64,000 nt of DNA from Acutalibacteraceae bacterium (GTDB lineage: Bacteria; Bacillota; Clostridia; Oscillospirales; Acutalibacteraceae), in contig JAZLLW010000031.1 in NCBI GenBank assembly GCA_045598305.1, positions 939 to 64,938 of the forward strand, given 5' to 3'. The translations under genes and the position numbers were made by a program. The notes below the pieces were generated by a model. The model saw nothing but the letters and a program-made list of their open reading frames with translations. It had not been told where the DNA came from and ran no database searches. Shown in pieces: positions 3,627 to 32,398 of the stretch (its first letter is position 1; the number at the start of each line of letters is the position of its first letter).

Positions 3627-4289
3627 TTAGTTTGTAAACTCGATGGTATTGAGAACGGCAACGATATCGTTCATATTGTTTGTCAGGTCCTCTGCGGATT
3701 CAACGTAAACGCGCAGGAGGATGCCGTCTTTTTCAATGTAGATATAACCCATGAATCCGAGTGCGTTTTCGGGCACTTCGGGGATAAATACGCAAATGAA
3801 CTGACGGTCCTTGCCGAGAATCTTTACCTTGCTTTCGGTAATCTTTGCATCGGGATATTTACTCTTGACCGTGTTGAAGATTGATTTTGCATTCGCGATT
3901 TCGTTTGTCATATCCGCATCCGTCTTATACATAATACGGATGTGATTGCCCTTGTCGTCAACAAGGTTTGCATCGTTTGCCGAGCTCTCGTTTTTCCAGC
4001 CCTCGGGAATGGTGATATTGTAAAGGTCATAATAAATCTTGTCGCCGTAAACGATACCGAAATCGGCATCGTGTATCTGAGTGACCTTTTTGCCGTTCAT
4101 ATCGGTAACCACCTCAAGGAAGTCGCCGTTTTCGTTTGTTTCGGGAGTGCCTCCCTTTTCGGTCTTGAGGTTATAGGTTTCGCCGTTATTCTGTGTAACC
4201 TGCTCGGTGCCTCTGTATTTCTTTTTACATCCGGCAAAGCAGCAGAGGATGATTGCAAGAATCGTTAAAAGGGATATTGCTCTTTTCAT
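3627..4289 (-). CDS. Hypothetical lipoprotein
   Basis: 220 aa with a signal peptide and lipobox ([10 protein letters not shown]). I recognise no catalytic motif. Confidence 0.6.
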
Positions 4290-4312: not shown

Positions 4313-5905
4313 TCAGCCGTTAAGGGCCTTGAATGCCTTTTTGTTGTTGGCATAGAGAGTCTTGTAAACTTCAAAGTTCTTGTCGTAGACGGGCTTGTTT
4401 GCGGGATCGGGCTTGAAGGTCTTGGTCGCTCTGACGAGCTTCTTTGCTTCCTCAACCTCGTTGATTACGCCCAGACCTACCGCCATGATGACTGCGGCAC
4501 CGACAGCACCTACGTTCTGGGGACTTTCAACGGTTTCAATCGTTCTGCCCGTAACGTCCGCGAGAATCTGGCAGGTAACGTCGCTGAGCGCACCGCCGCC
4601 TACGAAGCGGACGACGTCGGAGGTCTTCGTCTTCTTATCCTGGGTCTCAATGAACCACCGCATGTGGAAGCATACGCCCTCGATAACGGAACGGATGAGC
4701 TCCGTCTTGCCCGTATCAAGACTGATGTTGAAGAACATTCCTCTTGAGTTGGGGTCTTCAAAGGGACAGCGGTTGCCGTGGAGCCAGGGAGTGAAGATAA
4801 CACCGTTGCTGCCTGCGGGAGTTTCGCTGATTACCTTTGACAGATAGTCGTAAAGGGAGGTGTAAACGGCTTCCTTTGACTCTGCAACGTGTTTCTTTTC
4901 AAGGTAGATGCCGATTTCGTCAAGAGCAAGGTGGTCCTTTACCCATTCAAGGCACTTGCCTGCGGTTTCAAGCTCTGCGAAATAGACGAATTTGTTTTTC
5001 TGAGCGCCTACTATGGCGGCAATCATTGCGGAGGTATCAACGATACTCTTGTCAACTACGGTGCCTACCCAGCCGGAGGTGCCCTGATAGATGTGGGTGT
5101 CGCCCATACCTACCGCGCCTGCGCCTACGCCGATGAGGGAAGCGTCACCGCCGCCGCCGAATACAGCCGTACCTTCAACGAGACCGAGCTCTTCGGCTGC
5201 CTGCTTCGTAAGGCCGCCTACCTTGTCCGTTGAGTCAATGACGTCGGGAAGGTGATTGAAGTCAACGCCGAGAATGTCGCACATCTTCTTGCTGAAGCAC
5301 TGCTGCTTGTAATCGTAAAGGAGAGTGCCAAAGGCAGAGTCCTTTGTCATAACGAATTTGCCTGTCATACGGGCAATGAGGTATTCCTTGACGTCAAGCC
5401 ACTTGTGAATCTTCTTGAAATTCTGCGGCTCGTTATCCTTTACCCAGTGATATTTCCATACGGGGTCCTTGACGGAGCAGGAAACCGCGCCGGTGATCAT
5501 AAGAGAGGGAAGAAGCTTTGCAATGTTTGCGCCCGCTATCTGGGGACCGTATGCCATACCCTCTTTTATCTGCTTTGTAGCGCGCTGGTCCATATAGCTG
5601 AATGCTCTGTGAACGGGCTTGCAGTCCTTATCAACAAGGACAAGGCCCTGCATCTGCGAGCAGAATGAAATACCTTCGATCTGTTCGGGTTTTACGAGGT
5701 CTGTCTGAGAAAATACCTTTGCCGTCGTATTGCAGAGAGCGTCCCACCATTCATCCGGGTCCTGCTCTGCTCCTCCTCCGGGAAGAACGTAGAGCTGGTA
5801 GCCCTGCATGGCTGCGGAAATAAGCTTGATTTCATTTTCAATTTCAAAAATGCAGGTTTTTACGCCGGTGGTACCGATATCATAGGAAATAACGTATTTT
5901 TTCAT
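4313..5905 (-). CDS. FGGY-family carbohydrate kinase (xylulokinase/glycerol-kinase-like, substrate unknown)
   Basis: The ORF track gives 4313..5941. I prefer the internal start MKKYVISYDIGTTGVKT at 5905, which is preceded by GAAGGAGG. It has the FGGY N-terminal DIGTTGVK motif and the C-terminal GGGA motif. Confidence 0.85.
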   Translation of the reverse strand: MKKYVISYDIGTTGVKTCIFEIENEIKLISAAMQGYQLYVLPGGGAEQDPDEWWDALCNTTAKVFSQTDLVKPEQIEGISFCSQMQGLVLVDKDCKPVHRAFSYMDQRATKQIKEGMAYGPQIAGANIAKLLPSLMITGAVSCSVKDPVWKYHWVKDNEPQNFKKIHKWLDVKEYLIARMTGKFVMTKDSAFGTLLYDYKQQCFSKKMCDILGVDFNHLPDVIDSTDKVGGLTKQAAEELGLVEGTAVFGGGGDASLIGVGAGAVGMGDTHIYQGTSGWVGTVVDKSIVDTSAMIAAIVGAQKNKFVYFAELETAGKCLEWVKDHLALDEIGIYLEKKHVAESKEAVYTSLYDYLSKVISETPAGSNGVIFTPWLHGNRCPFEDPNSRGMFFNISLDTGKTELIRSVIEGVCFHMRWFIETQDKKTKTSDVVRFVGGGALSDVTCQILADVTGRTIETVESPQNVGAVGAAVIMAVGLGVINEVEEAKKLVRATKTFKPDPANKPVYDKNFEVYKTLYANNKKAFKALNG

Positions 5906-5961
5906 AGGGTGACCTCCTTCATTTTCGGGCAAAATTCGCATTTTACCGATTATAATACACC

Positions 5962-6004: not shown

Positions 6005-6033
6005 ACAAAAAAGCCCGCGGTCTTTCCGCGGGC
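6005..6033 (-). terminator. Rho-independent terminator ending the 13.9-6.0 kb operon
   Basis: Stem GCCCGCGG (6013-6020) pairs with CCGCGGGC (6026-6033). On the reverse strand it is followed by TTTTTTGTT. It sits 11 nt after the symporter stop. Confidence 0.7.
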
Positions 6034-6043
6034 AGATTCATCT

Positions 6044-7477
6044 TTAATTTTCGGCAGACGCTTCTTTTTCGGCTGCTCTGTGCACGTTGAGTTCCTCGTG
6101 CATGACTTCAAGATTTTTCTTGCCGAATTTATATCCGAAGGCGAGCGTGACGAACATAATGAGCAGGGTGATTGCGGGAACGAGGGTGGAAATATCGTAA
6201 ATCTTTGACAGAACGGACGCACTCTGCTGAATGCCGCTTGAGGCGAGCTCCGAATCGTAGCCGATTTTTTCAATCAGCAGGGCGGTACCCGTACCCGCAA
6301 GGGTCTGACCGAGCTTGCGCATGAAGGTGAATACGGAGTAGCAGGTGCCTTCCTCGTGTCTGCCGGTACGAAGCTCGTGATAGTCTATGACGTCCATAAC
6401 GAGCGCCCATACTTCAAGAACGAGGAACGTCATTCCCGCTCCGCTGAGGAAGCAGGCGGCAAGGAATACATAGGGGTTTGCCGCAAGGGAGGTGCCTCTG
6501 ATACCGAAGGCAATGAAGTTTGCGAGTGCGGAGAAGGCAAGTCCAGCCGAGCAGATTTCCTTTTTGCCGAAGCGTCTTATCAGCTTCGCCATAAACGGAA
6601 CGAAGAGAGCCATGGGCAGATAGGTGCTGACGGTGACGAAGGTGTAAAGACCGCCGTTGCCGTAAACGTTGTCAAACAGATAGTTGTAACAGGTCTGGGT
6701 GTAATACTGATAGGCGATGAGAAGCATGGAAACTATGCTGACAACGATGAATTCCTTGTTGCGTACAAGGTCTTTTACCGTTTGGAAGAAATTGTAGTTT
6801 CCGTCCTTCTGTGCGGCGGAAACCGTAACTCTTTCCTTTGTCATCCTGAAGTGGATGAAATAGGTCAGAGCAGAGAAGACGGAGAGCAGGATTACCGCGA
6901 CAAACAGCTTGTTGCCGTCAAAGCTCTTGACACCCGTATTCTCATTGGTGGAGTAAACGATCATGGGCAGTATTATCTGTCCGGGAAGACCGCCGAGGCC
7001 GGCGCCGATGGAACGCCATAAGGAAAGGGATGAGCGTTCGATTTCGTCATCCGTAATAACCGATGCAAGTGAGCCGTAGGGGATATTGGTGCCCGTGTAC
7101 ATCATGCCGTAGAAGATATACGTGACGGCGGCGAGAATGACCACGGTTATGGGGTTTCCGTTCTTGAGGAAGGGAGCAAACATAAGTACCGAGGCAATGG
7201 CGTAAGGAATTGCCGCACCTAAAATGTAGGGGCGGAAACGGCCGTGCTTCGTGGGCTTCCTTGAATCAACGAACGAGCCCCAGATAGGGTCGTTGATTGC
7301 GTCCCAGATTCTTGCCACGAGCAGAAGAATAGCCGCGTGACCGCCTGACATGCCGAGGAAATCCGTGTAGAATTTCATCTGGAAGGTGGTGACTACCGCA
7401 TTGGTCAGCAGACCTGCGGTATCGCCGAGAGCGTAGCCGACTTTGTCTTTGAATTTGATGCCGTGTGTACTTTCCAA
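6044..7477 (-). CDS. Glycoside-pentoside-hexuronide (GPH):cation symporter family transporter (YihO/MelB-like)
   Basis: 477 aa, about 12 TM segments, with a GPH-type N-terminus (KVGYALGDTAGLL...FYTDFLG). Confidence 0.85.
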   Translation of the reverse strand: MESTHGIKFKDKVGYALGDTAGLLTNAVVTTFQMKFYTDFLGMSGGHAAILLLVARIWDAINDPIWGSFVDSRKPTKHGRFRPYILGAAIPYAIASVLMFAPFLKNGNPITVVILAAVTYIFYGMMYTGTNIPYGSLASVITDDEIERSSLSLWRSIGAGLGGLPGQIILPMIVYSTNENTGVKSFDGNKLFVAVILLSVFSALTYFIHFRMTKERVTVSAAQKDGNYNFFQTVKDLVRNKEFIVVSIVSMLLIAYQYYTQTCYNYLFDNVYGNGGLYTFVTVSTYLPMALFVPFMAKLIRRFGKKEICSAGLAFSALANFIAFGIRGTSLAANPYVFLAACFLSGAGMTFLVLEVWALVMDVIDYHELRTGRHEEGTCYSVFTFMRKLGQTLAGTGTALLIEKIGYDSELASSGIQQSASVLSKIYDISTLVPAITLLIMFVTLAFGYKFGKKNLEVMHEELNVHRAAEKEASAEN

Positions 7478-7492
7478 AGTAATCTCTCCTTA

Positions 7493-8224
7493 TTATTTGA
7501 TGAGCAGGGATATTCCGCTTATGAGCATAAGCACGTAAGTGAGCTGAAGGAAGAAGCTCCGGCTCATTTTTTTACAAATCAGATTGCCGACAACCAGCGC
7601 CGCCGCAAGCGCCGCCGTTGAAACGGCTGCAAGCTTTACTGTAGATAGGGTAAAATATCCGTCGTGGATATCCGTGGCGAAAATAATGCCGTTGAGCAGT
7701 ACCCACACAAGACTCAGAGTGCCGCGGAAGGTATTCTTGTCCCTGATTTTACCGCTTGCGTAGGTTACCAGCAGAGGGCCGCCGCATACGAACATTCCGT
7801 GTACGATGCCGCCTATGACCGCCAGAGGGACGGCAACGGGCTCCGGGAGGGGCTTGTCATCTTTTCCCGTATAGAATTTTATTGCGTTCATCACGGCGAA
7901 AACGATGACGGTAACGCCGAGAATAATATAGAGCAGAGAGGGATTTCCCGAGAAATATCTCTTGAGAAAAATTCCCGCTGCCATACCAATGAACATGAGC
8001 CCCGCCATTTTGCCGAATTCTTTTATATCAATGCTTTTGCGGCAGACGATAACTACGTATACCGATGCCAGAAGACCCAGCAGATTGAGGATTGAACGGG
8101 CGGAGTCAAGACCTATGAGCCGTATGGAAAAGGGCATTGCGAGTACCGTACCCGCAAATCCCGTTATGCATTGGATTATGTTTGTAAGGAATACCGTTAC
8201 GAGAAACAGGATTTTCGGGAGCAT
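7493..8224 (-). CDS. TauE/SafE (TSUP, DUF81) family anion exporter
   Basis: 243-aa polytopic membrane protein with the typical TSUP N-terminus (ITGFAGTVLAMP). Its ATG shares one nucleotide with the stop of the upstream isomerase gene. Confidence 0.8.
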   Translation of the reverse strand: MLPKILFLVTVFLTNIIQCITGFAGTVLAMPFSIRLIGLDSARSILNLLGLLASVYVVIVCRKSIDIKEFGKMAGLMFIGMAAGIFLKRYFSGNPSLLYIILGVTVIVFAVMNAIKFYTGKDDKPLPEPVAVPLAVIGGIVHGMFVCGGPLLVTYASGKIRDKNTFRGTLSLVWVLLNGIIFATDIHDGYFTLSTVKLAAVSTAALAAALVVGNLICKKMSRSFFLQLTYVLMLISGISLLIK

Positions 8225-9567
8225 CAGTATTCAAGCACCTCTGTTCCCAGCATATTTCCGAACGCTCTGATACGGGAAGCGATACCGTCGGAGGCAATTA
8301 CAAAATGGGGCTCCCAGCCGTCCTTTACGGCGTTTTCCACAAGGTCTTTTGCGGGTCCGTCCGTTCTGACTACCACGGAAGTGCCGTTGAACTGCTTGGG
8401 CTTGTCAAGTGCTTTGCCCGATGAGAGGAAAAACCTGAACGAGCCGTCGGGATTCCTGCCGATTCTGAAAATCGTTACCTTATCGACGGCTTTACAGCCG
8501 AAATCAAGCGTGGGACCGATTTTTCTGTTGCAGTGAAGACCTGCGCAGGCACCCGTATCCTCCCTTGCCATGGAGCAGGGAGCCATACCGCAATGCCAGA
8601 AGGTGACCGTGTTTTCTTTTTCGTCAAGGGAAACGGGGTCGCCGAAGAATACGCTTCTGCCCGAAAGGAAGGAAGCCGCGAACATTGATAGCGCGCCGTA
8701 GGAATCCGCTTCGCAGGCGCAGGGAATACCCAGGTCGTTGAGTATGCCGAGCACCGCACATACGGGAGTGCCGAAGGCGGTAAAGAAATCGGGCCAGCAT
8801 CTTGATGCGAGAGCACCGATGTTGTTTTCCTTCACGTAGTCGGAATATGCCTTGTAAAGACGGGCAAAATCCGAAACGTTTTGCGGATCGATTTTATCAA
8901 GACCGCAGATTCGCTTTTCCGCATCCGAAAGATAGGGTGCGATATCGTCGTCTGTAAAGGCTTTTGCCTTGTCAATCAGTTCTCTTGCCTCTATTGACTC
9001 CGCCGTAACGCCGAACGCTTTCAGCATATCAAGGTCAAGCGCTCTGCCGAAGCCGAAGCCCTGCGGAGTATGTCCGATCTGGGCAAGCTTCAGCCCCCGC
9101 ATTGCCTTCTTTAACCTTGCGGCATCAATGACCGCGGAGATTTTTTCTTTTACTTCGTCCTCATCGGGAGAGCCGAAAACGTATTCAAAATTCCTGCCGA
9201 AGCCCCGCAGAGTATTAGCCGCCGAAAACGCACCCGTAAGGGAATTGAGACGAAGCCGCGTGCCGTCAATCACGGGCTCACGGAGAGTCCAAAGCAGCAC
9301 CGGGCAGTCAAGGGAAGTGAGAATTTCACTCATATAGGCGGCGTTTGCAAAGGTGAGATTCTGCACGATTGCAAGGTCGGGCCTGAGGGATGAAATATAC
9401 GCTTTGAGCTTATCAACGGTAAGCAGCATTTCGTCGGGAAAGACAACGCACGGGTCAAGCTCCTTCAGCAGAGAAATACTGTCTTCAAAGGCCTTTCCGG
9501 CGCTTTCAAGATGAAACGTGCCGACACCGATCGGTATATATGCGGATCTGAAATCCATCATTATCAC
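8224..9567 (-). CDS. L-fucose/L-arabinose isomerase-family sugar isomerase (substrate unknown)
   Basis: 447 aa with the motif RCWPDFFTAFGTPVCAVLGILNDLGIPCACEADSYGALS. This matches the metal-site region of FucI/AraA-like isomerases. It is a paralog of the gene at 23438..24907. Confidence 0.75.
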   Translation of the reverse strand: MIMMDFRSAYIPIGVGTFHLESAGKAFEDSISLLKELDPCVVFPDEMLLTVDKLKAYISSLRPDLAIVQNLTFANAAYMSEILTSLDCPVLLWTLREPVIDGTRLRLNSLTGAFSAANTLRGFGRNFEYVFGSPDEDEVKEKISAVIDAARLKKAMRGLKLAQIGHTPQGFGFGRALDLDMLKAFGVTAESIEARELIDKAKAFTDDDIAPYLSDAEKRICGLDKIDPQNVSDFARLYKAYSDYVKENNIGALASRCWPDFFTAFGTPVCAVLGILNDLGIPCACEADSYGALSMFAASFLSGRSVFFGDPVSLDEKENTVTFWHCGMAPCSMAREDTGACAGLHCNRKIGPTLDFGCKAVDKVTIFRIGRNPDGSFRFFLSSGKALDKPKQFNGTSVVVRTDGPAKDLVENAVKDGWEPHFVIASDGIASRIRAFGNMLGTEVLEY

Positions 9568-9568
9568 C

Positions 9569-10423
9569 TTACTCGTTTACAATTTTATAGGTTGACCTGA
9601 AATCGTCCTTGCCGAGACCTTCCTTCATGCCTCTTTCGTAAACGGAGAGGATGTTGTCAAGTCCGGGCATAAGCATATCCTGCTCGTCTGCAAGACGGCG
9701 GCAGATATTCAAGTCCTTATTTTCATTTTCAAGAGAAAATGCGGTAGTCCAGTTTTCGTTTTTGAGATTTTCCTTCTGGGATTCAAGGTAGAAATTGCCT
9801 GCACCGCCGTAGGAAACCGCCGTAGCGAAATCGTCAACGGAAATGCCGAGCTTACGGGCAAGTCCCAGAGTTTCGTTTACGCCGTTCTGAATCTGACCGA
9901 CAAGGCAGTTGTGACAGATTTTCATGGCGATGCCCTTGCCGTTTTCACCCATGCGGATAATGTTGCAGCCCATGTATTTCAGTATGGGTTCTATAACGGG
10001 GAAGAGCTCTTCGTCACAGCCGGCGAGAATGCCGAGAGTACCGTTGATTGCGGCGGGCTTTGACTTGACGACGGGGCAGTCCGCAAACTGCGCGCCCTTT
10101 GCCTTTATCATTCCCGCACATTCAAGGGAAACGGAGGGATCAATGGTGCTCATATCAATGCAGATTTTACTGCTGTCAATGTAGGGCAGAAGCTCGGTGT
10201 AAACCGCTTTGACGTGCTCCGATTTGGGAACCATCGTGATAATGACGTCGGCGTTTTTTGCCACCTCGATATTGTCCTCGCAGGGGATTCCGCCGAGACC
10301 TGCCAGCTTTTCCACCTGCGCCTTGTTGATGTCGGAAACGAAGACCTTGTCATCGTGTTTTTTGATAATGTTTTCGCTCATGGATTCGCCCATGATACCA
10401 AGTCCGATAAATCCGATTTTCAT
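9569..10423 (-). CDS. NAD(P)-dependent beta-hydroxyacid dehydrogenase family reductase (HIBADH/YihU/GarR-like)
   Basis: 284 aa with the Rossmann motif MKIGFIGLGIMG and a 6-PGDH-type C-terminal domain. Confidence 0.85.
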   Translation of the reverse strand: MKIGFIGLGIMGESMSENIIKKHDDKVFVSDINKAQVEKLAGLGGIPCEDNIEVAKNADVIITMVPKSEHVKAVYTELLPYIDSSKICIDMSTIDPSVSLECAGMIKAKGAQFADCPVVKSKPAAINGTLGILAGCDEELFPVIEPILKYMGCNIIRMGENGKGIAMKICHNCLVGQIQNGVNETLGLARKLGISVDDFATAVSYGGAGNFYLESQKENLKNENWTTAFSLENENKDLNICRRLADEQDMLMPGLDNILSVYERGMKEGLGKDDFRSTYKIVNE

Positions 10424-10435
10424 AGTATTGACCTC

Positions 10436-11122
10436 TTATTCGGTGATTGTATTGTCCCATGCCGACCGGAATTTTGCCAGACCGTAATCGGTGAAGGGAT
10501 GATAGAAGCTGTCCTTGAATACCTGAAGACCTGCGGTCACGATATCCGCGCCCGCAACTGCGCAGTCAACTATCTGCTTGCCGTTTCTTACTGCGGCACA
10601 TATAATTTCCGTCTTGCCGAGGAAACCGTAATTTCTGTAAATCTCAACTATATCGCTGATGTACTGAACGCAGTCCTCACCGCTGTTCTCTTTCCAGCCG
10701 ATGAAGGGGGAAACGAAGAGAGAATTGTTCTTTCCCGCGATAAGTGCCTGGGAAGCGGAGAAAACGAGGGTAAGGTTGGTACGAATGCCTTTCTTTTCAA
10801 GGCGTCTTGCGGCGGTAATGCCCGCTTCGGTGCAGGGGATTTTGATTACGAAGTTACTGCACATAGCCGATATTTTCTCTGCCATGGCGAACATTTCGTC
10901 CGCATCGTCAAGGTGGGGATTGATTTCAACGGAAATGGGGAAAACGTCCCAGCCCTCAATGCCCTTTTCCTTTACGAAATCCGCAAGTTCCGCGATAACG
11001 GTGTAAAAGGGCTTGCCGCTGTTCATGATATGATTGGGATTTGTGGTGATTCCGTCGATTCCGAAGGTGTCGTATGCCTCGCGGATCTCGTCGATTTTTG
11101 CACTGTCAAGAAAGTATTTCAT
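10436..11122 (-). CDS. Transaldolase / fructose-6-phosphate aldolase family (subfamily 3B, about 220 aa)
   Basis: 228 aa reading MKYFLDSAKIDEI...DGITTNPNHI, with the Schiff-base lysine context FVIKIPCT. Confidence 0.85.
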   Translation of the reverse strand: MKYFLDSAKIDEIREAYDTFGIDGITTNPNHIMNSGKPFYTVIAELADFVKEKGIEGWDVFPISVEINPHLDDADEMFAMAEKISAMCSNFVIKIPCTEAGITAARRLEKKGIRTNLTLVFSASQALIAGKNNSLFVSPFIGWKENSGEDCVQYISDIVEIYRNYGFLGKTEIICAAVRNGKQIVDCAVAGADIVTAGLQVFKDSFYHPFTDYGLAKFRSAWDNTITE

Positions 11123-11134
11123 CTTTATCTCTCC

Positions 11135-11827
11135 TTAAAGCTTTTCAAGTATTTCGGGGTGCTGAGTAAGGTCGTATCTCTTATAGCCGTCATTCGCGTC
11201 AAAGAACCATACCCTCGCATCCGGTCTTTTGGGTGATATCTTAACGGAATATTTACCGTCAATATAGCATAATGCGGTATCGTTTTCGCAGGCGATAGTG
11301 GAGAGAGCGGTCCTGTCGGCATATTCGTCAAACTGATGCCAGAAAGCACCCTCGTAATGGGGAACATTATTGTAGGGAATGATGTCGGTGCAGTCAACGA
11401 ACATGAAATCGCCTCTCGGACCGCAGTCGTCAAAGCCCTGTCTGAACCAGCACATGCTGCCCGAGGATTCGCCGAAAAGCACCTTGCCCGCGTCAAACGC
11501 CTCTCTGAGATATTTGATTACGCCGGTCTTTTTCCAGGTTTTCAGACAGAAATTGAGGTTGCCGCCCGGAACGTGAATCACGTCTGCCCAACGGATTTTT
11601 TCCGCGATCAGCTCCTCCGTGATATATGGATGAGTGAGATAGAGAACATCCGTATCACAGCCCATTTTGCTGTATCTGCCCACGTCGCAGGGGCTTGAAT
11701 CGTAACCCGTTGTGGGGATTTCAAGATAGTTGGGATATTCTTTGCCTGAAAGACCCATTATGTATTCCGCAAAGTCCCATGCGTATTCGTCTCCGAAACC
11801 GCCGCCGATAGCTATTATTTTACCCAT
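11135..11827 (-). CDS. Peptidase S51 (dipeptidase E/cyanophycinase-like) family serine hydrolase
   Basis: The ORF track starts at 11863. I prefer MGKIIAIGGGF at 11827, one nucleotide after the GH31 stop. It has the nucleophile-elbow-like motif GESSGSMCW. Confidence 0.7.
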   Translation of the reverse strand: MGKIIAIGGGFGDEYAWDFAEYIMGLSGKEYPNYLEIPTTGYDSSPCDVGRYSKMGCDTDVLYLTHPYITEELIAEKIRWADVIHVPGGNLNFCLKTWKKTGVIKYLREAFDAGKVLFGESSGSMCWFRQGFDDCGPRGDFMFVDCTDIIPYNNVPHYEGAFWHQFDEYADRTALSTIACENDTALCYIDGKYSVKISPKRPDARVWFFDANDGYKRYDLTQHPEILEKL

Positions 11828-11828
11828 G

Positions 11829-13847
11829 TCAGAACTCCTTTGCTGCTTTTTCAAATATTTCAAGGGCTTCGGGGGAAGCGTTCTTTCTGTAAAACGCCGC
11901 GGGTGTGCCGACGGGGGCTTTGACCGTGTGCTTTCCGCCCTTATATTCTTTTCCCGTTGAAAATTCTATCCATTCGTCATCGGGAAGATAAACGTTCTTT
12001 TTATTCGTGTCCGGTCTTAAAACGGGAGCAACGAGTATATCCCTGCCCAGCAGGTATTCGTATGCCAGCACCTTTGATGCCTCGTCGTCATAGTGGAAGA
12101 AGAGGGGTCTTATAACGCCCGTACCCTTTTCGGCATTCTGCCTTACCGCTTCTCTGATATACGGCTTGAGAGCACAGTGTATCCTGCTCATTTTTGCCTG
12201 ATGCTCAAGGGTTTCGGAGCTTGCGTCAAACTGGGCGTTCAGATCGGGATTGTTGCCCTCGTGACTTCTCATAACGGGTGAAAATACATTCATTTCGCAC
12301 CAGCGCATATACAGCTCCTCGTTTCTGCACATCTTGCCGAAGGTGGTATATCCGCCTATATCCGAATGACTCAGACCGTAACCGCTGCAGGTGAGGGAAA
12401 GGGATGCTGGAATGACGGACGGCAGACCGTTATCCATGGAAAAGTCCACGTGATTGTCGCCGTTCCACATCATCGTGGAGTATTTCGGCGTTTCGGTGAA
12501 GCCCGCTCTGGTAAAGAACATTGTTTCGCCGAGCTTTCCGCTTTCCTCAACGACCTCTCTGTTGAGCTTCGCCCATCTTGCGGGCCATGTATTGTGGGCA
12601 AGCTCGGGGTCTTCGCCGCTGTAAAGCACACAGTCGGTGGGCAGATATTCGCCGAAATCCGCCATCCAGCCGGACAGACCGAAATCTATCATGTTTTCTT
12701 TAATCTTCTTTTTAAGCCAATCCCACGCATCGGGATTTGTCAGGTCAACTATCGCGGCGGGGAAGGTGGTGATGGTAACGAGATAATCGCTGCCGCTTTT
12801 ATCCTTTACGCAGTAGCCCTTTTCGGCGGCTTCCTTATACATCGGTTTTTCAATGGCAAGGAAGGTGTTGCAGTAGCCGAGTACCTTGATGTTCTTTGCG
12901 TTCAGCTCTTTTATCGCTTCGGGAAGACCGGGATAAAGCTCCCTGTCCCATTCCCAGTTCCATTGGAGCTGTTTGCCGAAGGCGGTCACACGTCTGCCCT
13001 CCCAGTCCTGAATCCAGACACCCGCGACCCTTGTGCCGTGTTCAAGGCAGGCGTTCACTTTATTCATCATTATTTCCGTGCCGCCCTGAATGCCGAGAAT
13101 CACGCCGTCATAAACCCAGTCGGGAAGCTCGGGCTGTCTGCCCAGACGCGCCGTAAGGCATTCCATGACCTCCTCAAAGCTGTCGCCGAAGCCGATTTCA
13201 AAACCCTCGACACAGTCAAACTTGAGGCGGTGATATTTTTTATCGGTAAAATCAAATTCGCATCTTGAAGTCGCAGAGGAATGAAAGCTGTATTTACGGC
13301 TTGAGAGGAAGGTCGGCTGGGCGTAATAGGTTTCGTAGGTTTCAAATTTGTTTTTGCGTTTGCCGTTGCGAAATCCGAGAGTGACCTTGGTAATCTTTTT
13401 TGATATCATTTTCGCATTCTGATGCTCGGCGACCCAGATGTTTGCCTTATGACCTCTCAGGTCAAATTCGGTGAAGGTTTCGCCCGTGCCGTAGATATGC
13501 TCCTTTTCGTCTGCGGGGAGGGAAATCCAAAGGCGGTTGTAGGCGGAAAGTTCGTAAAAATCCGCTTTCAGACTGTTTCCGTCAACGGAAAGGACCGCGC
13601 TGCCCTCCGTGAGCGAAATCTCCGCACGGTTACCCGACAACAGAATATCCCTAACGAAAAGGGGCTTGCGGCAGTATATTTTTTCTTTGATGGTGAAGCT
13701 GCCTCTGTCCATTTTGTAATTGTTTTCGCCGTAGCCGGTTTCAGCAGCGATTTCACCCTGCCGGAGTGTGAAAACGGGGGAGGAATTACGAAGAAGCACG
13801 AGCGCTCCGTCCGTTATTGCAAGTTCAACCAAGAAACACACCTCCAT
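11829..13847 (-). CDS. GH31 alpha-glycosidase, YihQ (sulfoquinovosidase)-like subfamily
   Basis: 672 aa with the nucleophile context GWMADFGEYLP, the acid/base context WNGD, and HSDIGGY. An alternative TTG start at 13832 lies behind a GGAGG box. Confidence 0.85.
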   Translation of the reverse strand: MEVCFLVELAITDGALVLLRNSSPVFTLRQGEIAAETGYGENNYKMDRGSFTIKEKIYCRKPLFVRDILLSGNRAEISLTEGSAVLSVDGNSLKADFYELSAYNRLWISLPADEKEHIYGTGETFTEFDLRGHKANIWVAEHQNAKMISKKITKVTLGFRNGKRKNKFETYETYYAQPTFLSSRKYSFHSSATSRCEFDFTDKKYHRLKFDCVEGFEIGFGDSFEEVMECLTARLGRQPELPDWVYDGVILGIQGGTEIMMNKVNACLEHGTRVAGVWIQDWEGRRVTAFGKQLQWNWEWDRELYPGLPEAIKELNAKNIKVLGYCNTFLAIEKPMYKEAAEKGYCVKDKSGSDYLVTITTFPAAIVDLTNPDAWDWLKKKIKENMIDFGLSGWMADFGEYLPTDCVLYSGEDPELAHNTWPARWAKLNREVVEESGKLGETMFFTRAGFTETPKYSTMMWNGDNHVDFSMDNGLPSVIPASLSLTCSGYGLSHSDIGGYTTFGKMCRNEELYMRWCEMNVFSPVMRSHEGNNPDLNAQFDASSETLEHQAKMSRIHCALKPYIREAVRQNAEKGTGVIRPLFFHYDDEASKVLAYEYLLGRDILVAPVLRPDTNKKNVYLPDDEWIEFSTGKEYKGGKHTVKAPVGTPAAFYRKNASPEALEIFEKAAKEF

Positions 13848-13861
13848 AATACAATTAACTT

Positions 13862-13890
13862 ATTATATAGTGCGCGGGAAAATAATTCAA
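13862..13890 (-). promoter_or_regulatory. Sigma-A-type promoter of the GH31 operon
   Basis: The reverse strand reads TTGAAT (13885-13890), exactly 17 nt, then TATAAT (13862-13867). Confidence 0.55.
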
Positions 13891-22001: not shown

Positions 22002-23435
22002 TTATTCATCAATAACCTTTGCGGCTTGGTATAACTTCAGGTATTTCAGGTATTTCTTTTCATAAAAATCCGTGAGAGATTTGTCGGGGCGGATTGTTTC
22101 CCTTGTACCGTAAAAAGCGGGAGAAATATCCTTTCCCGTTCCCTTTGCCGCAAGAATGCACGCACCGAGTACGCCTCCGTGCTCAAGCAGGGGGATTTTG
22201 ATATTTATATCCAGCACGGTTGCCGTCAGCTGAGTCCAGAAAAGGCTTTTTGTACCGCCGCCGCAGATACCCGATTCGGTTATATTCACGCCGAGGGATT
22301 TTATGATTTCAACATTCTGTTTAAGTGAAAAAGCTACACCCTCAAGCACCGCAAGAGCCATTTCCTCCCTTGTGGTGTTCATGGAAAGACCGTAAAACAT
22401 ACCTCTTACTTTTGTGTCGTTTACGGGGGAGCGTTCACCCATAAGATAGGGCAGGAAAACGACGTCGCTTTTGCCTGCATACCGCTTCACTTCGTCGCTG
22501 TAATCGGTTTTGAGTATATCCTCAATCCACCATTTGTTGCATGATGCGGCGGTGAGAGTGCAGGCGAGGTAATGATATTTTCCGTTTGCGGAGCAGAAGG
22601 AATGAATGGCATTCTCTCTGTCGCAGTTGAATTTATCCGAGCAAACGAAAACCGTACCCGAGGTGCCGAGCGAAATGTTGCAGTCGCCGTCGCTGACGGC
22701 TCCCGTTCCGATTGCCGAGGCGGCATTGTCGCCGGCACCGATGACGATTTTAACCTCATCAAAGCCAAGCTCCTGCGCTATTTCCTTTTTCAGATTGCCT
22801 ATCGGCTCATAGCTTTCAGATACCTTCGGAAGCTTATCCTCGGATATATGGCATATTTCAAGCATTTCGTCTGACCAGCATCTGTTTTTCGTATCAAAGT
22901 AGAGTGTGCCTGCCGCATCCGAGGTGTCAGTTGCAAAAACGCCCGACATCATATACGCAACGTAATCCTTGGGCAGACAGATTTTTTCCGCCCTTGCGAA
23001 ATTTTTCGGCTCGTTATTGTAAACCCAGAGAAGCTTGGGCGCGGTGAAGCCGGCAAACGCTATATTTCCCGTTTTGTCAAGCAGGAAATCCCTGCCGATT
23101 TCATCGTTAAGGAAGGAAACCTCCTTTTCGCTCCTGCCGTCATTCCAGAGGATGGCGGGGCGGATAACCTTATCCTCTTTGTCAAGCATAACAAGGCCGT
23201 GCATCTGACCGGAAAAGCTGATTGCCCTTACCTCGCTTTTATCAATACCGGCGGTGAGCTCTTTTATTGCGTCAATGCTTTCACCGTACCAGTCTTCGGG
23301 ATTCTGTTCCGACCATCCGCTGTGGGGAAAGGAGAGAGGATAATCCCTTGATACCGTGCCGATTATTTCGCTGTCGCTTGTGAGCATCGCCTTAACCGAG
23401 GAGGTGCCCACGTCAAGTCCGATATAGTAATTCAT
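22002..23435 (-). CDS. xylB: Xylulokinase-like FGGY kinase
   Basis: 477 aa reading MNYYIGLDVGTSSVKAML, with the FGGY C-terminal GGGTKS motif. Confidence 0.8.
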   Translation of the reverse strand: MNYYIGLDVGTSSVKAMLTSDSEIIGTVSRDYPLSFPHSGWSEQNPEDWYGESIDAIKELTAGIDKSEVRAISFSGQMHGLVMLDKEDKVIRPAILWNDGRSEKEVSFLNDEIGRDFLLDKTGNIAFAGFTAPKLLWVYNNEPKNFARAEKICLPKDYVAYMMSGVFATDTSDAAGTLYFDTKNRCWSDEMLEICHISEDKLPKVSESYEPIGNLKKEIAQELGFDEVKIVIGAGDNAASAIGTGAVSDGDCNISLGTSGTVFVCSDKFNCDRENAIHSFCSANGKYHYLACTLTAASCNKWWIEDILKTDYSDEVKRYAGKSDVVFLPYLMGERSPVNDTKVRGMFYGLSMNTTREEMALAVLEGVAFSLKQNVEIIKSLGVNITESGICGGGTKSLFWTQLTATVLDINIKIPLLEHGGVLGACILAAKGTGKDISPAFYGTRETIRPDKSLTDFYEKKYLKYLKLYQAAKVIDE

Positions 23436-23437
23436 AA

Positions 23438-24907
23438 TTACCCCCAGGGATTTTCGGTAGGATATCTGACCTCTTTCGGCTGATTATATCCGATATCTGA
23501 TACACCGAAATATCTGAATACCTCATAGAGTGCCTTTCCGCAGTGTGAGAATGCGACCGCACCGTGATGAGGGAATTTCTTTTCAATGAGAATATGACGG
23601 TAGAATCTGCCCATTTCGGGGATGGCGAATACACCTATACCGCCGAAGGAACGGGTGGCAACGGGAAGTACCTCGCCTTGGGCGATATATGACCTGAGAT
23701 TGCCCTCACTGTCGCATTGCAGACGGTAGAAGGTGATATCCGAGGGAGCTATATCTCCCTCAAGAGTGCCTCTCGTGAAGTCGGGCTCGCTTCCCGCGGG
23801 CTCAAGCAGTCTGTGCTGAATGAGCTGATATTTTACACCGCAGCCGTCACACATCTTGCATGACGGAGTGTTTCCGCAATGGAAGCCCATAAAGGTATCT
23901 GTGATACCGTAATTGAATTTTCCTTTGATATTTTCTTCATAGATGTATGAGGGAACGGAATTGTTGATATCAAGCAGGGTGACCGCATCTTTTGTTACGC
24001 AGGCACCGATATATTCCGAAAGAGCGCCGTAAATATCCACCTCGCAGGCAATGGGGATACCCTTTGAAGCAAGGCGTGAATTGACGTAGCAGGGTTCAAA
24101 GCCGAACTGCTCGGGGAATGCGGGCCAGCATTTATCGGCAAAGACGACGTACTCTCTGTCGCCCTTGTGTGCGTCTGCCCAGTCAAGGAGAGTCAGCTCA
24201 AAGCGTGCCATTCTCTCAAGCATATCCTCATAAACGTTTTTGCCCATTTCGGCTTTCATTTCTTCAATGATTGCGTTTACTCTTGAGTCGCCTTTAAGTG
24301 CATTATATGCAACGAGCAGGTCAAGCTCGCTGTTTTCCTCAATCTCAACTCCCAGCTCGTAAAGTCCCTTTATGGGGGCGTTGCAGGCAAAGAAATCCTG
24401 GGGTCTGGGACCGAAGGTGATGATTTTAAGATTTGAAACACCGATGATTCCTCTTGCAACGGGGATAAATTCCCTTATTATTGAGGCGCATTCATCAGCC
24501 GTACCGACGGGATATGAGGGAATGTAAGCCCTCAGATGACGCATACCGAGATTGTATGAGCAGTTGAGCATACCGCAGTAGGCATCGCCTCTGCCGTTTA
24601 TCATATCTCCGTCACCCTCTGCGGCGGCAATCACCATTGAGGGACCTCTGAATTTCTTTACGAGGAGTGTTTCGGGAGTTTCGGGACCGAAGTTACCCAG
24701 GAATACGACGAGCGCATTTACGCCGTGGGCTTCAATGTCGGCTATTGCCTTTGCTGCGTCCGCTTCATTTTCAACGGTTACGGGGCATTCATAGAGTCCT
24801 TCACCGAATGCTTTGACTATATTTGCTCTGCGCATTTCGGAAAGTGCGATGGGGAAGCAGTCACGGGAAACTGCGATTATGCCGGGCTTTACTGACGGAA
24901 TATTCAT
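23438..24907 (-). CDS. L-fucose/L-arabinose isomerase-family sugar isomerase (second paralog)
   Basis: 489 aa with the motif KCWPAFPEQFGFEPCYVNSRLASKGIPIACEVDIYGALS. The same signature appears at 8224..9567. Confidence 0.8.
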   Translation of the reverse strand: MNIPSVKPGIIAVSRDCFPIALSEMRRANIVKAFGEGLYECPVTVENEADAAKAIADIEAHGVNALVVFLGNFGPETPETLLVKKFRGPSMVIAAAEGDGDMINGRGDAYCGMLNCSYNLGMRHLRAYIPSYPVGTADECASIIREFIPVARGIIGVSNLKIITFGPRPQDFFACNAPIKGLYELGVEIEENSELDLLVAYNALKGDSRVNAIIEEMKAEMGKNVYEDMLERMARFELTLLDWADAHKGDREYVVFADKCWPAFPEQFGFEPCYVNSRLASKGIPIACEVDIYGALSEYIGACVTKDAVTLLDINNSVPSYIYEENIKGKFNYGITDTFMGFHCGNTPSCKMCDGCGVKYQLIQHRLLEPAGSEPDFTRGTLEGDIAPSDITFYRLQCDSEGNLRSYIAQGEVLPVATRSFGGIGVFAIPEMGRFYRHILIEKKFPHHGAVAFSHCGKALYEVFRYFGVSDIGYNQPKEVRYPTENPWG

Positions 24908-24919
24908 AATAACCTCCGG

Positions 24920-26986
24920 TTACAGTTCAATTTCAATTTTCTTTTTCATTGCATCCTCTGCATCCTGACCGATGTAGAGGGTGTATTTCTTCTCATTGTA
25001 GGTTGATTTTGTCGCGGGATCGTAAAATGCAAGACGGCTGAGCGGAATCGAAAGAGTCACTCTCTGACTTTCGCCTGCCGCCGCAAGTACCTTTTTGAAG
25101 CCCTTGAGCTGTTTTACGGGGTGGTCACCCTCTGCGCCCGCATAGACCTGAATGACGGTTTTGCCGTCTCTGTCGCCCTTGTTTCTGACTGTAAGGGAGA
25201 CCCGCACCTCGTCTTTTACGACCTTTGCGGTTACCCTCTGATAGTCAAATTTTGTATATGACAGACCGAAGCCGAATGGGAAGGATGCGGCTTTGCCTTC
25301 CTTGTCAAGAAGGGTATAGCCGTGGTAATAGCCGTAAAGCATATCCCTCTCTTTGCTTCCGGGGAAGAGGAACGGGGGATAATCGTCTTCGTCTTTTGCA
25401 ACGGTAAAGGGCAGATGACCCGAGGGGTTCACGTTGCCTGCGATGATATCCGCAAGCGCGTTGCCGCCCTCCATACCGCCGTAAAACGAATGAAGGATTG
25501 CGCTGACGCTGTCCTTCCATTCGTCAATTACGTAGGCACTGCCGCCGATTATATTGACGATAACGTTTTTGCAGGATGCGACGGCGTGACGGATGAGAGC
25601 CGTTTCGTCCTTTGAAATACGCAGGGAGTATCTGTCTCCGCCCATACCCATTTCGGCTACGTCGTCGTTTTTGGTGAAGTTGGCGAGATTTTCGCCCTCC
25701 TGCTTATAGTCGCTGCCTACACAGATGATTACCGCATCGCACTTCTTGATTTCGGATTCCTTGGGAGTAAGACTCGTTCCCTCAAGAAGCACCACGTTGT
25801 TTTTGCCGAAAACGTTGCAAAGACCCTCGTAGGGTGTGACGGTGTACGGGCTGTAAACGGAGCTGGAGCCGTGGTCACCGACGTTGATTTTATCTGCATA
25901 TCTGCCGACTACGGCAACCTTCATTGATTTGTCAAGAGGAAGCAGACCGTCGTTTTTGAGCAGTACCGTTCCTTCTGCCGCGGCTCTGCGGGCAAGGGCG
26001 GTGTGCTCTTTGCTCGCAATGACGGATTTGTCGGCCTTTTTAAGCTTCGGATTGATTTTTATCAGGCTCCTCAGAATGCTCTGAACGGAGGAATTTATGT
26101 CATCCTCGGATACCTTGCCCGCCTTCAGATTGAATGGCAGAGTGGCATAGTGCATTATCTGGGGCATTTCGATATCAAGACCCGCCTTCAGCGCCTTGGG
26201 AGCATTTCTGACACCCATAAGAAAATCGGAAATGGTAAAGCCCGTAAATCCCCATTGGTCACGCAGGATATCTTTGAGCAGATATCTGCTTTCACAGCAG
26301 TGATCTCCTCTGAAAAGATTGTATGCGCCCATGATTGACATTGCACCCGCGTCGATGCACGCCTTGAAATGAGGCAGATAAACCTCATGAAGGGTGATTT
26401 CGTCGCAGTTGACGTTAACGTCAAAGCGGATGTTTTCAATGCTGTTGAGAGCGAAGTGCTTGGGGCAGGCGATAACGCCCTTATCCTGCACCGCCCTTGT
26501 CAGAGCAGCGCCCATTTCGGAAAGGAGATACGGGTCTTCGCCGTAGGTTTCCTGAGCTCTGCCCCAGCGGGGATTCCGCAGCAGATTGATGCAGATACCC
26601 GCAAAGTAGTTTCCGCCCTGAGCGGTGACCTCGTCGGCGATGGCGGAGCCGATTTCGTATTCAAGCTCGCTGTCAAAGGATGCACCTCTGAGCATGGAAA
26701 CGGGGAAACAGGTGCTTTTACCCATTACGCATCCTCTCGGGCCGTCGGAGAAAGCAACCTCGGGGATTCCCAGACGCTTTACGCCGCCCGCGATGCAGGG
26801 ACGGCAGTTATATTTCTGACCGTTGACGAAAAGGTCGTAGCCGTTTCTGATAAAAAACTGCCTGCCCGAAAGCATACCCAGTTTCTCTTTCAGCGTCAGC
26901 TCGCCGCACAGTTTTTCCGCGGCATCGTAAAGACCTTCGTCGGTGGGGTTTTCGCTGTAATATTTAACGGCATCATCAAAATTCAT
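24920..26986 (-). CDS. GH3 beta-glucosidase/beta-xylosidase (no signal peptide)
   Basis: 688 aa carrying the GH3 motifs SDGPRG and KHFALNS, and the nucleophile context GFTISDF. Confidence 0.9.
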   Translation of the reverse strand: MNFDDAVKYYSENPTDEGLYDAAEKLCGELTLKEKLGMLSGRQFFIRNGYDLFVNGQKYNCRPCIAGGVKRLGIPEVAFSDGPRGCVMGKSTCFPVSMLRGASFDSELEYEIGSAIADEVTAQGGNYFAGICINLLRNPRWGRAQETYGEDPYLLSEMGAALTRAVQDKGVIACPKHFALNSIENIRFDVNVNCDEITLHEVYLPHFKACIDAGAMSIMGAYNLFRGDHCCESRYLLKDILRDQWGFTGFTISDFLMGVRNAPKALKAGLDIEMPQIMHYATLPFNLKAGKVSEDDINSSVQSILRSLIKINPKLKKADKSVIASKEHTALARRAAAEGTVLLKNDGLLPLDKSMKVAVVGRYADKINVGDHGSSSVYSPYTVTPYEGLCNVFGKNNVVLLEGTSLTPKESEIKKCDAVIICVGSDYKQEGENLANFTKNDDVAEMGMGGDRYSLRISKDETALIRHAVASCKNVIVNIIGGSAYVIDEWKDSVSAILHSFYGGMEGGNALADIIAGNVNPSGHLPFTVAKDEDDYPPFLFPGSKERDMLYGYYHGYTLLDKEGKAASFPFGFGLSYTKFDYQRVTAKVVKDEVRVSLTVRNKGDRDGKTVIQVYAGAEGDHPVKQLKGFKKVLAAAGESQRVTLSIPLSRLAFYDPATKSTYNEKKYTLYIGQDAEDAMKKKIEIEL

Positions 26987-26997
26987 ATCTGTACCTC

Positions 26998-29463: not shown

Positions 29464-29472
29464 GGTATCACC

Positions 29473-30612
29473 TCAGAAGCTGCCGCAGAAAAATGTATTT
29501 TTCTGCGGGAATGCTTTGTACAAATCGGGATTATTGTTTATGATTTCAAGTCCGTTCAGATACGGGGCATCATCTGGACTTATTCCGCACAGGAAAATTT
29601 TTGACATCGCGAAGCTTTCCATAACGAAATCGGGGCTGCCGTCACAGTCTGTCAATGTGTGACCTCCGTCTCCGTATTCAAGGAAAAAGGTACCGCTGTT
29701 GGCGGAAACGGTGTCGTTCACCCTAAATGTGAAGCCGCCTTTTTCAAGAGGCCAATCCACTTTGCCGAGGACGTTTTTAAGATTGATTATCCTTATCGCA
29801 CCCGTATTCTGCAGCTGCCGCTTTGCATTTCCCTCATTGACGAGATAGCGGATTATCGGGGAGGAGAGAGGGAGCATCGTAAATCTGATGAGCGGAAGAT
29901 TGCTCTCATACTGCCTGAGATAACCAAGCAGATTCAGCATGGCTTTCTTATCTTCAAAGCAGATTTCGGACACCTCAAGCGTTTCCTCGCTTCTCTTTAC
30001 GGAAAAGCTCACCATACCGTCGGGTCTGCCGTTTTCGTCAAGGGACAGATAAGTGTAATCTGGCGTGTCAAAGGGCTTAAGGTTAAAGAATCCGCCGTCT
30101 TTTCTTTCATAGGCCAGATTGTACCGGGAAGCAAGACGGTTATATACCTCAAGCAGCTCTTCAAGGTTATCCTCCCGGACGCATTTCACTCTGTCGGAGC
30201 AGGGGATAAAAGCGAAATTATCCGCACCCGTTTCAAGAGATATGAAATCCGCCGAGGTTTCGTATCCGAATTTCCTGTAATACGACGTGGAGAAGGGATG
30301 GAGTATGCTTATATCGTAACCGGATTCAAAGAGCTTATTGAAAAGGGCACGCACCGTGCCTTTGTGTCTGTACTGAGGAAGAGTCGCAACGCCTCCCACT
30401 CCCGCACAGCGAAGCTTACCCTTTCCGTAAAAGCAGGTATAGTCGTTGACCTCGATTTGTGACATAAGAGTCTTATCGTCGTCTGCAAACGCCGCGAGTA
30501 TTTCGTAGGGGGGCATCGTCATATCATCGGCTGTGATTTCTCCGCCGAAGGACTGAACGGCACATTCCGCCGAAGCACGCAGGTCCTTTTCCTCAACTTT
30601 TCTGATTATCAT
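29473..30612 (-). CDS. GNAT-family N-acetyltransferase, Eis-like (GNAT plus SCP2-like C-terminal domain)
   Basis: I prefer the start MIIRKVEEKD at 30612, downstream of the MFS terminator. It has the acetyl-CoA motif LPQYRHKGTVRAL and is about 380 aa long. Confidence 0.7.
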   Translation of the reverse strand: MIIRKVEEKDLRASAECAVQSFGGEITADDMTMPPYEILAAFADDDKTLMSQIEVNDYTCFYGKGKLRCAGVGGVATLPQYRHKGTVRALFNKLFESGYDISILHPFSTSYYRKFGYETSADFISLETGADNFAFIPCSDRVKCVREDNLEELLEVYNRLASRYNLAYERKDGGFFNLKPFDTPDYTYLSLDENGRPDGMVSFSVKRSEETLEVSEICFEDKKAMLNLLGYLRQYESNLPLIRFTMLPLSSPIIRYLVNEGNAKRQLQNTGAIRIINLKNVLGKVDWPLEKGGFTFRVNDTVSANSGTFFLEYGDGGHTLTDCDGSPDFVMESFAMSKIFLCGISPDDAPYLNGLEIINNNPDLYKAFPQKNTFFCGSF

Positions 30613-30635
30613 ATAAACATCACCACACTGACGGT

Positions 30636-30677
30636 TTTTATTTTCAAAATGCGGCTGCCGCAAAATGCAGCAGCCGC
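30636..30677 (-). terminator. Probable rho-independent terminator after the MFS gene
   Basis: Stem GCGGCTGC (30651-58) pairs with GCAGCCGC (30670-77). On the reverse strand it is followed by ATTTTGAAAATAAAAA. Confidence 0.5.
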
Positions 30678-30690
30678 AGACACAGTTATA

Positions 30691-32211: not shown

Positions 32212-32398
32212 ATTATTTCTCCTTAGATTGCGGCGCACATTCGCCGAGTATAAAAACATTATATCATCACTTATATAATTTTTGAATACTACAATATGAA
32301 CTAAAAAATAGGATATTTTTTATACAACTTGTCTAATCAAAAATTTGCAAGTTTGTGATATAATCCCTTGCATAGATTCGGATACAGGAGGACTGATT

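Follow-up and report, generated by a model that had tools for sequence, protein, structure and literature searches.

Does the seven-gene operon on the minus strand at positions 6005-13890 of this Acutalibacteraceae bacterium DNA (assembly GCA_045598305.1, contig JAZLLW010000031.1; the whole analysed stretch of 64 kb is here called the window) serve the degradation of sulfoquinovose (SQ), and what place do an extra S51-family hydrolase and an atypical glycosidase have in it? SQ is produced at about 10 billion tonnes per year, and its breakdown in the gut to 2,3-dihydroxypropane-1-sulfonate (DHPS) feeds H2S-producing bacteria. The first-pass annotation, made from the letters alone, had proposed sulfo-transaldolase (sulfo-TAL) logic for these genes. 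We assigned the open reading frames (ORFs) of the window to families by Pfam and NCBIfam searches and compared the operon with related loci in other genomes. It is very probably a sulfo-TAL operon (or sulfo-SFT, for sulfofructose transaldolase) of the reductive, DHPS-forming type, streamlined, with an S51 gene embedded in it and with glutamine in its GH31 glycosidase at the position of Escherichia coli YihQ Arg301 (hereafter Gln301).

The ORFs and the Pfam and NCBIfam matches bore out seven co-directional genes, in the place and of the families first proposed, with a promoter and a terminator:

13862-13890, minus strand: sigma-70-type promoter TTGAAT-17-TATAAT (10/12 matches)
11829-13832, minus strand: SftG-like GH31 glycosidase of the YihQ type, 667 aa from TTG 13832 (ORF open to ATG 13847)
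11135-11827, minus strand: S51-family (PepE/cyanophycinase-like) serine hydrolase, 230 aa (Pfam PF03575, 79 bits)
10436-11122, minus strand: predicted SftT/SqvA 6-deoxy-6-sulfofructose transaldolase, 228 aa (67% identity and 308 bits to BmSF-TAL, 8BC3)
9569-10423, minus strand: predicted SftR-type sulfolactaldehyde reductase, HIBADH family, 284 aa (Pfam PF03446 and PF14833)
8224-9558, minus strand: predicted SftI-type sulfoquinovose isomerase, AraA/FucI superfamily, 444 aa from ATG 9558 (NF048012, 389 bits)
7493-8224, minus strand: predicted SftE-type TauE/SafE organosulfonate (DHPS) exporter, 243 aa (Pfam PF01925, 59.6 bits)
6044-7477, minus strand: SftA-type GPH:cation symporter, presumed importer of SQ or SQ-glycerol, 477 aa, TTG start (TIGR00792, 292 bits, above the cut-off)
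6005-6033, minus strand: intrinsic terminator GCCCGCGG-AAAGA-CCGCGGGC followed by a T-run (-20.5 kcal/mol, z = -4.55)

Gene content, gene order, orthology and conserved catalytic residues could be read directly from the loci, and every enzyme fits the sulfo-SFT/sulfo-TAL set better than any alternative, which upholds the pathway first proposed. When the transaldolase was checked against the sulfofructose transaldolases, it scored 308 bits to the solved Bacillus megaterium enzyme BmSF-TAL, with 67% identity, versus 151 bits to the best ordinary transaldolase or fructose-6-phosphate aldolase (FSA). It conserves D6, E61 and K89 (catalytic), N111 and S133 (sugar-orienting) and W138 and R172 (sulfonate-orienting), the roles being those given in PMC11659671, which cites Snow 2023. 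Asn30, which is Arg30 in B. megaterium, was considered as a lost sulfonate ligand and rejected, since the transaldolases of the Eubacterium rectale-type clusters also have Asn30.

The YihQ type of the GH31 enzyme was confirmed by the NCBIfam equivalog PRK10426, which it passes with 779 bits against a cut-off of 553. Its best PDB matches are four solved sulfoquinovosidases (520-637 bits, versus 147 for YicI), with 637 bits and 46% identity to E. coli YihQ, and it keeps the nucleophile D405, the acid/base D472, Q288, W304 and Y508. Whether the Firmicute isomerase belongs to the FucI family had been left open, and this can now be answered: SftI-type isomerases carry PF02952, as do the homologues found here, and the predicted fold is that of AraA/FucI. 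PF02952 is among the signature families of sulfo-SFT neighbourhoods (PMC11968277). NF048012, 'sulfoquinovose isomerase SftI', is the only NCBIfam match of the window isomerase. Sequence comparison gave no PDB relative of this isomerase; its AlphaFold2 model (predicted local distance difference test, pLDDT, 85) matched L-arabinose and L-fucose isomerases in Foldseek with template-modelling (TM) scores of 0.72-0.79. No aldehyde dehydrogenase is present in the operon. The TauE gene holds the same position in all related operons among the loci compared, and the GPH symporter is 27-28% identical to E. coli YihO and YihP.

These loci were obtained by scanning species-representative genomes with the window transaldolase, which gave at least 578 confirmed matching stretches, of which we compared the 80 best (84-98% amino-acid identity to the window transaldolase). 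They are mostly metagenome-assembled genomes (MAGs) of herbivore-gut Clostridia, from horse, goat, sheep, deer, reindeer, rabbit and human guts, and are labelled Clostridia, Oscillospiraceae, Acutalibacteraceae, Ruminococcaceae or Eubacterium. Two of them come from sister species, L009 with 93% nucleotide identity over 20 kb and L010 with 90%, and their gene order and flanks are identical to those of the window. Across this set the transaldolase is far better kept than its neighbours, GH31 being 59-95% identical (42% in the E. rectale type), TauE 39-92% and GPH 52-96%.

Five of the loci (L034-L038) are of the E. rectale type: they have an SSF importer, and their GH31 is 81-83% identical over 113 aa to 6PNR, the biochemically proven SftG of E. 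rectale. In E. rectale and Clostridium symbiosum such clusters are expressed on SQ and DHPS is excreted (PMC7491151). The E. rectale-type proteins are 89% (transaldolase), 63% (isomerase) and 61% (reductase) identical to those of the window, so that the assignment to the reductive sulfo-SFT pathway rests on close orthology and not just on the 'logic' of the gene families. The sulfo-Embden-Meyerhof-Parnas (sulfo-EMP) route is excluded, since tblastn (E <= 1e-3) found no homologue of YihS, YihT, YihV, YihR or CsqR in the window.

Substrates, products and the direction of transport are predicted from these homologies, and the pathway would run as follows. The GPH symporter would import sulfoquinovosyl glycerol or free SQ, the YihQ-like GH31 would free SQ, and the AraA/FucI-type isomerase (SftI) would convert it to sulfofructose. 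SftT would then move C1-C3 onto glyceraldehyde-3-phosphate, yielding fructose-6-phosphate and sulfolactaldehyde (SLA), and SftR, of the HIBADH family, would reduce the latter to DHPS with regeneration of NAD+, for export by TauE. The S51 hydrolase would be co-transcribed, and the pathway chemistry would be complete without it.

A number of observations weigh against this assignment. The 389 bits of the isomerase lie under the NF048012 equivalog cut-off of 700; the E. rectale-type SftI, at 408 bits, likewise falls under it, and the cut-off evidently reflects Bacillus sequences. The reductase lacks the sulfonate ligands Asn174 and Ser178 of E. coli YihU, to which it is only 29-30% identical; the E. 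rectale-type reductase likewise lacks them and has the same 'KICHN' substitutions as the window. No biochemical or growth data on this organism or on a GH31 of the Gln301 clade were found in the literature. Finally, the GH31 departs from Q/E-RWY, the published sulfoquinovosidase motif (PMC12780224): Arg301 of YihQ, which with Trp304 and Tyr508 forms the published sulfonate pocket (PMC8006165), is replaced by Gln (FGKQLQWNW, codon 12971-12969). In addition, the loop 367-373 reads ITTFPAA instead of FGEFYGG and N474H lies beside the acid/base, unlike in all enzymes with Arg301 (R-type).

At YihQ position 301, Arg is present in each of the four solved sulfoquinovosidases (FGKRVMW, FGKRLQW, FGKRLMW and FGARLFW); the window has FGKQLQW. 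Gln301 is not an error, because it is common to all of the approximately 120 closest GH31 homologues (61-91% identity), is found in the GH31 of 69 of the 74 related operons, Arg occurring only in the five E. rectale-type loci, and is commoner than Arg among 150 GH31 family representatives. In a neighbour-joining (NJ) tree the window GH31 falls in a clade separate from the R-type clade, which holds E. coli YihQ and the E. rectale-type enzymes. Further traits of the Gln301 clade (Q-type enzymes) are S291E and a near-invariant Arg293. Arg293 was considered as a compensation for Gln301 and rejected, as the association is not exclusive among the 150 representatives.

Two other readings of the operon were weighed against these data. 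An ordinary alpha-glucoside or pentose-phosphate operon with a generic FSA/TalC aldolase and no sulfonate link would agree with the top NCBIfam match of the transaldolase, TIGR00875 (fsa/talC; 183 bits, under the cut-off of 246), and with the NCBI names 'alpha-glucosidase' and 'fucose isomerase' borne by homologues. It is highly improbable, as no ordinary transaldolase or FSA reaches more than half the score that the transaldolase has to BmSF-TAL, the isomerase matches the SftI model alone in NCBIfam, glucoside catabolism has no role for a TauE exporter, the operon contains no sugar kinase, and it is orthologous to the experimentally validated E. rectale-type clusters. The other reading changes the glycoside, so that the operon would handle something other than an alpha-sulfoquinovoside, namely a different 6-substituent or SQ on a different aglycone. 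The replacement of Arg301 throughout the closest homologues and in most related operons, the separate clade with its specific changes at 367-373 and 474, and a PRK10426 score lower than that of the E. rectale-type enzyme (779 versus 987 bits) all speak for this; the other 6-substituted 6-deoxyglucoside that the first-pass annotation had named as an alternative is kept alive by the missing arginine, but weakly only. On the other side, Q-type and R-type operons have transaldolases that are 84-98% identical, with the sulfonate-orienting Trp and Arg kept, and so high a conservation means that the downstream substrate should be the same sulfofructose. The TauE exporter and the SftR-type reductase are both present, and the GH31 retains W304, Y508 and Q288. 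Moreover, the marine SqgH clade of GH31 is an active sulfoquinovosidase without the RWY motif, so loss of the motif does not preclude activity (PMC12780224). We regard a different glycoside as improbable. Returning to SQ as the substrate, we infer that the Q-type GH31 still delivers it, because the transaldolase hardly differs between the two types of operon; judging from its sequence, this GH31 would have to bind the 6-substituent (the sulfonate) or the aglycone differently from the characterised sulfoquinovosidases.

The extra S51 hydrolase is a real gene, located between GH31 and the transaldolase. Across 116 homologues, its S121, H157 and E181 show no or almost no variation, and the spacing of Ser121 and His157 presumably matches that of Ser120 and His157 in PepE. 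In Foldseek, the AlphaFold2 model (pLDDT 91) matched PepE, cyanophycinase and pseudo-CphB with TM scores of 0.64-0.75 at 16-20% identity. An S51 gene occupies the GH31/transaldolase junction in the window, in L009 and L010 (one genus) and in the distant L090 (GCA_024692685.1), that is, in 4 of about 85 related operons examined. L090 has the same seven-gene order with different flanks, its GH31 and S51 being 67% and 65% identical to those of the window. In L011, which shares synteny with the window on the radical-SAM side, the operon is present and exactly the ~750-bp S51 gene is missing. The closest S51 relative (81%) stands alone in L001, next to that same radical-SAM gene, and has a promoter and a terminator of its own. 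No sft genes, neither GH31 nor transaldolase remnants, were found around it, and operon decay in L001 was therefore rejected. About 40 further homologues also stand alone in unrelated contexts, several of them on contigs too short to show both neighbours. An exact look-up of the window S51 and of P0136 returned no record, and our literature search gave no paper linking S51 to SQ.

Most likely, the S51 gene was a resident gene of housekeeping type before the operon of this genus took it in, and it has no required pathway role. Its occurrence at the same junction in two non-sister operons counts against such a passenger. In an NJ tree of six operon proteins, L090 nests among operons without S51 and monophyly of the S51-bearing operons was recovered in 0 of 100 bootstraps; in the S51 tree, the nearest neighbour of every copy inside an operon is a stand-alone gene (81% to L001; 73% to P0004). 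This suggests, as the simplest reading of the trees, two separate insertions at the same junction, the alternative being at least four precise losses; the NJ trees are crude, and recombination could give the appearance of convergence. The S51 protein might then be a genuine accessory enzyme, selected into the operon and not hitch-hiking. Its substrate could be an acylated or amide-linked conjugate from which SQ or SQ-glycerol is set free, or else an anionic conjugate that resembles Asp and bears a sulfonate. Beyond the two independent insertions that the trees favour, such a role is in line with the tight spacing and own Shine-Dalgarno sequence of the gene at exactly this junction, both in the genus of the window and in L090, with the intact catalytic Ser-His(-Glu), and with the ability of S51 enzymes to cleave non-peptide aspartamide bonds (PMC9239234). 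It has to be set against the rarity of S51 among the related operons, a family that is overwhelmingly stand-alone in unrelated contexts, a pathway that is complete without the enzyme, the L001 orthologue with its own transcription signals and no sft genes, the lack of any known candidate substrate, and the crudeness of the trees. An accessory role is possible, though clearly less probable than that of a passenger.

The first-pass annotation had called the operon unusual in having neither a regulator nor a mutarotase gene. Both absences hold for the operon, its flanks and the whole window, where homologues of the ROK regulator and of SftX (DUF4867), described as conserved in the pathway, were not found either; the lack of a regulator is, however, not unusual, being common to the whole subclade. 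Nor was a mutarotase (YihR homologue) found in any related locus searched. About 55 of the 80 loci have the majority form GH31-TAL-HIBADH-DUF4867-ISO-TauE-ROK regulator-GPH (TAL, transaldolase; ISO, isomerase), and about 25 have the streamlined six-gene form GH31-TAL-HIBADH-ISO-TauE-GPH, without DUF4867 and ROK, which is the form of the window. In most related operons DUF4867 lies between the reductase and the isomerase (for example L014:11557-12225 and L034:11640-12320) and a helix-turn-helix (HTH) and ROK-family regulator follows TauE (L014:14314-15414 and L034:14621-15769). The subclade of the window has lost both, and the usual regulator of Clostridial sulfo-TAL operons seems to be of the ROK type, not GntR or DeoR. 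In 14 of the DUF4867-containing operons the GPH gene is followed by an 832-aa protein with no Pfam domain (L014:16859-19357 and 13 further loci), which may be an accessory of the larger operon form.

Other means of control were searched for around the promoter. A leader RNA element was rejected, Rfam giving no match in the whole window and the leader from promoter to start codon being too short (only ~20-25 nt). A CcpA catabolite-responsive element (cre) at the promoter was also rejected, as none is located there and the cre-like sites lie elsewhere in the window, and operator-like repeats upstream of the operon are weak ones only. With no regulator gene, riboswitch or cre at the promoter, the operon may be expressed constitutively or regulated in trans. 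Across the window, cre-like matches are above chance (15 versus 4 expected), and they include a palindrome, TGAAAGCGTTATCA, in two perfect copies 2.7 kb apart (61059-61072 and 63738-63751), which flank an HTH-cupin-AMP-binding gene (60820-63111).

The promoter and the terminator described at first were both found. In L009 and L010 the two promoter hexamers are invariant and the spacer is variable; the pattern as such is not above chance, with 14 sites found versus 11 expected in 10 kb. The terminator is strong, with a stem at 6033-6013 of 8 G-C pairs and then the T-run, and in L009 and L010 the stem is kept and the loops differ. Genes had been described as overlapping by one nucleotide or separated by at most 12 nt, which is correct for all junctions except TauE to GPH, where the gap is 15 nt. 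The gaps are 1 nt from GH31 to S51 and 12 nt each from S51 to the transaldolase and from the transaldolase to HIBADH; the gap from HIBADH to the isomerase is 1-10 nt depending on the choice of start codon, and the isomerase stop overlaps the TauE ATG by 1 nt (TGATG). A Shine-Dalgarno-like GGAG or AAGG precedes all seven genes. The GH31 start is most likely TTG 13832, because GGAGG lies 8 nt before it, a sister species has GTG in place of the upstream ATG, and the homologues are 667-669 aa long. Similarly, the isomerase most likely starts at ATG 9558 or 9561 (9567 is also possible), since its homologues have 444 aa. A promoter-like TTGACT-17-TACAAT (10/12) occurs on the minus strand at 11369-11397, inside the S51 gene and ~250 nt upstream of the transaldolase start, and could give S51-independent transcription of the downstream genes.

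Both flanks of the operon are housekeeping in character. On one side lie a TIGR03960 radical-SAM protein and DUF2344. On the other, directly downstream of the terminator, are a XylB-like FGGY kinase (4313-5941, minus strand, 542 aa) with its own promoter TTGTAT-17-TATAAT, a 220-aa protein with a weak tautomerase match (3627-4289, minus strand), and then mreBCD; the kinase and the 220-aa protein also adjoin the operon in L006, L009 and L010, where mreBCD again comes next. A role of this kinase as a glycerol kinase for SQ-glycerol was considered and is not supported, as it is XylB-like (307 bits, versus only 145 for GlpK) and has its own promoter after the terminator. A second sugar cluster, at 22002-32259 on the minus strand, comprises a 477-aa FGGY kinase, a second PF02952 fucose-isomerase-family protein of 489 aa, GH3, an 821-aa papain-like/lectin-like protein, a GNAT protein and an MFS/GPH-like transporter, and is a neighbourhood of the 'glycoside-aldose/ketose' type. 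Among the compared loci, L035-L038, L045, L057 and L059 are 'cleanbin' or MAG records titled Bacteroidaceae, Paludibacteraceae, Bifidobacteriaceae, Phascolarctobacterium or Bacteroides. Their operons are of the Clostridia-type sulfo-TAL kind, with transaldolases 87-89% identical to that of the window, suggesting mislabelled or contaminated bins, or horizontal transfer.

The pathway has been known since 2020 and clusters of this kind are known to be widespread, so the core of the operon is not novel; its new details are the streamlined form, the S51 insertion and the Gln301 GH31. In most related operons the GH31 found alongside the transaldolase is without the arginine by which sulfoquinovosidases are defined. 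Should the Gln301 clade act on SQ glycosides, surveys that detect SQ degraders by motif would need revision; should it not, a large share of the predicted gut sulfoquinovosidases would be misassigned. By gene content, the streamlined form would make SftX, a dedicated regulator and a mutarotase dispensable, and the S51 insertion is a candidate for an extra step. A bolder proposal, that two novelties are linked here, an S51 enzyme twice recruited as an accessory and a distinct Gln301 clade of GH31 with a remodelled pocket, is speculative, and we think it rather unlikely. Under it, the clade may recognise the sulfonate, or a different SQ glycoside, through the candidates Arg293, His474 and loop 367-373. 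If true, the 'RWY' rule for calling sulfoquinovosidases would be incomplete and S51 would be an undescribed accessory in the catabolism of sulfosugars, with an SQ conjugate or some other anionic conjugate as its substrate.

Compared with known systems, the window operon is closest to the E. rectale and C. symbiosum clusters (Frommeyer 2020, PMC7491151; Sharma 2025, PMC11968277), with which it shares the SftG GH31, SftT, SftR, SftI, SftE and the predicted product DHPS. The E. rectale type differs in having SftX (DUF4867), a ROK-family regulator, an SSF instead of a GPH importer and the order TauE then isomerase; its GH31 keeps Arg301 and is 42% identical to that of the window, and it has no S51. 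With the oxidative sulfo-SFT operons of Bacillus aryabhattai (sftATXGIFDE) and B. megaterium (sqv) the window shares the transaldolase (67%), an SftI-family isomerase, GH31, an MFS/GPH importer and TauE, whereas the Bacillus operons have an SLA dehydrogenase leading to sulfolactate and not DHPS, as well as DUF4867 and a GntR regulator (PMC7491151), none of which is present in the window. The S51 protein shares its fold and GxSxG nucleophile with the PepE aspartyl dipeptidase, cyanophycinase and MccG-type members of peptidase family S51, and is unlike the solved ones (16-20% identity) in forming its own ~230-aa subfamily in gut Clostridia and in being embedded in a sugar operon. Finally, the sulfo-EMP operon yihO-W of E. 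coli has in common with the window a YihQ-like GH31 (46%), a GPH transporter (27-28% to YihO and YihP) and a HIBADH reductase making DHPS (29-30% to YihU). It relies on the AGE isomerase YihS, the kinase YihV, the aldolase YihT, the mutarotase YihR and CsqR, which have no homologues in the window. C-C cleavage would be carried out by a transaldolase in the window and is carried out by a kinase and an aldolase in E. coli.

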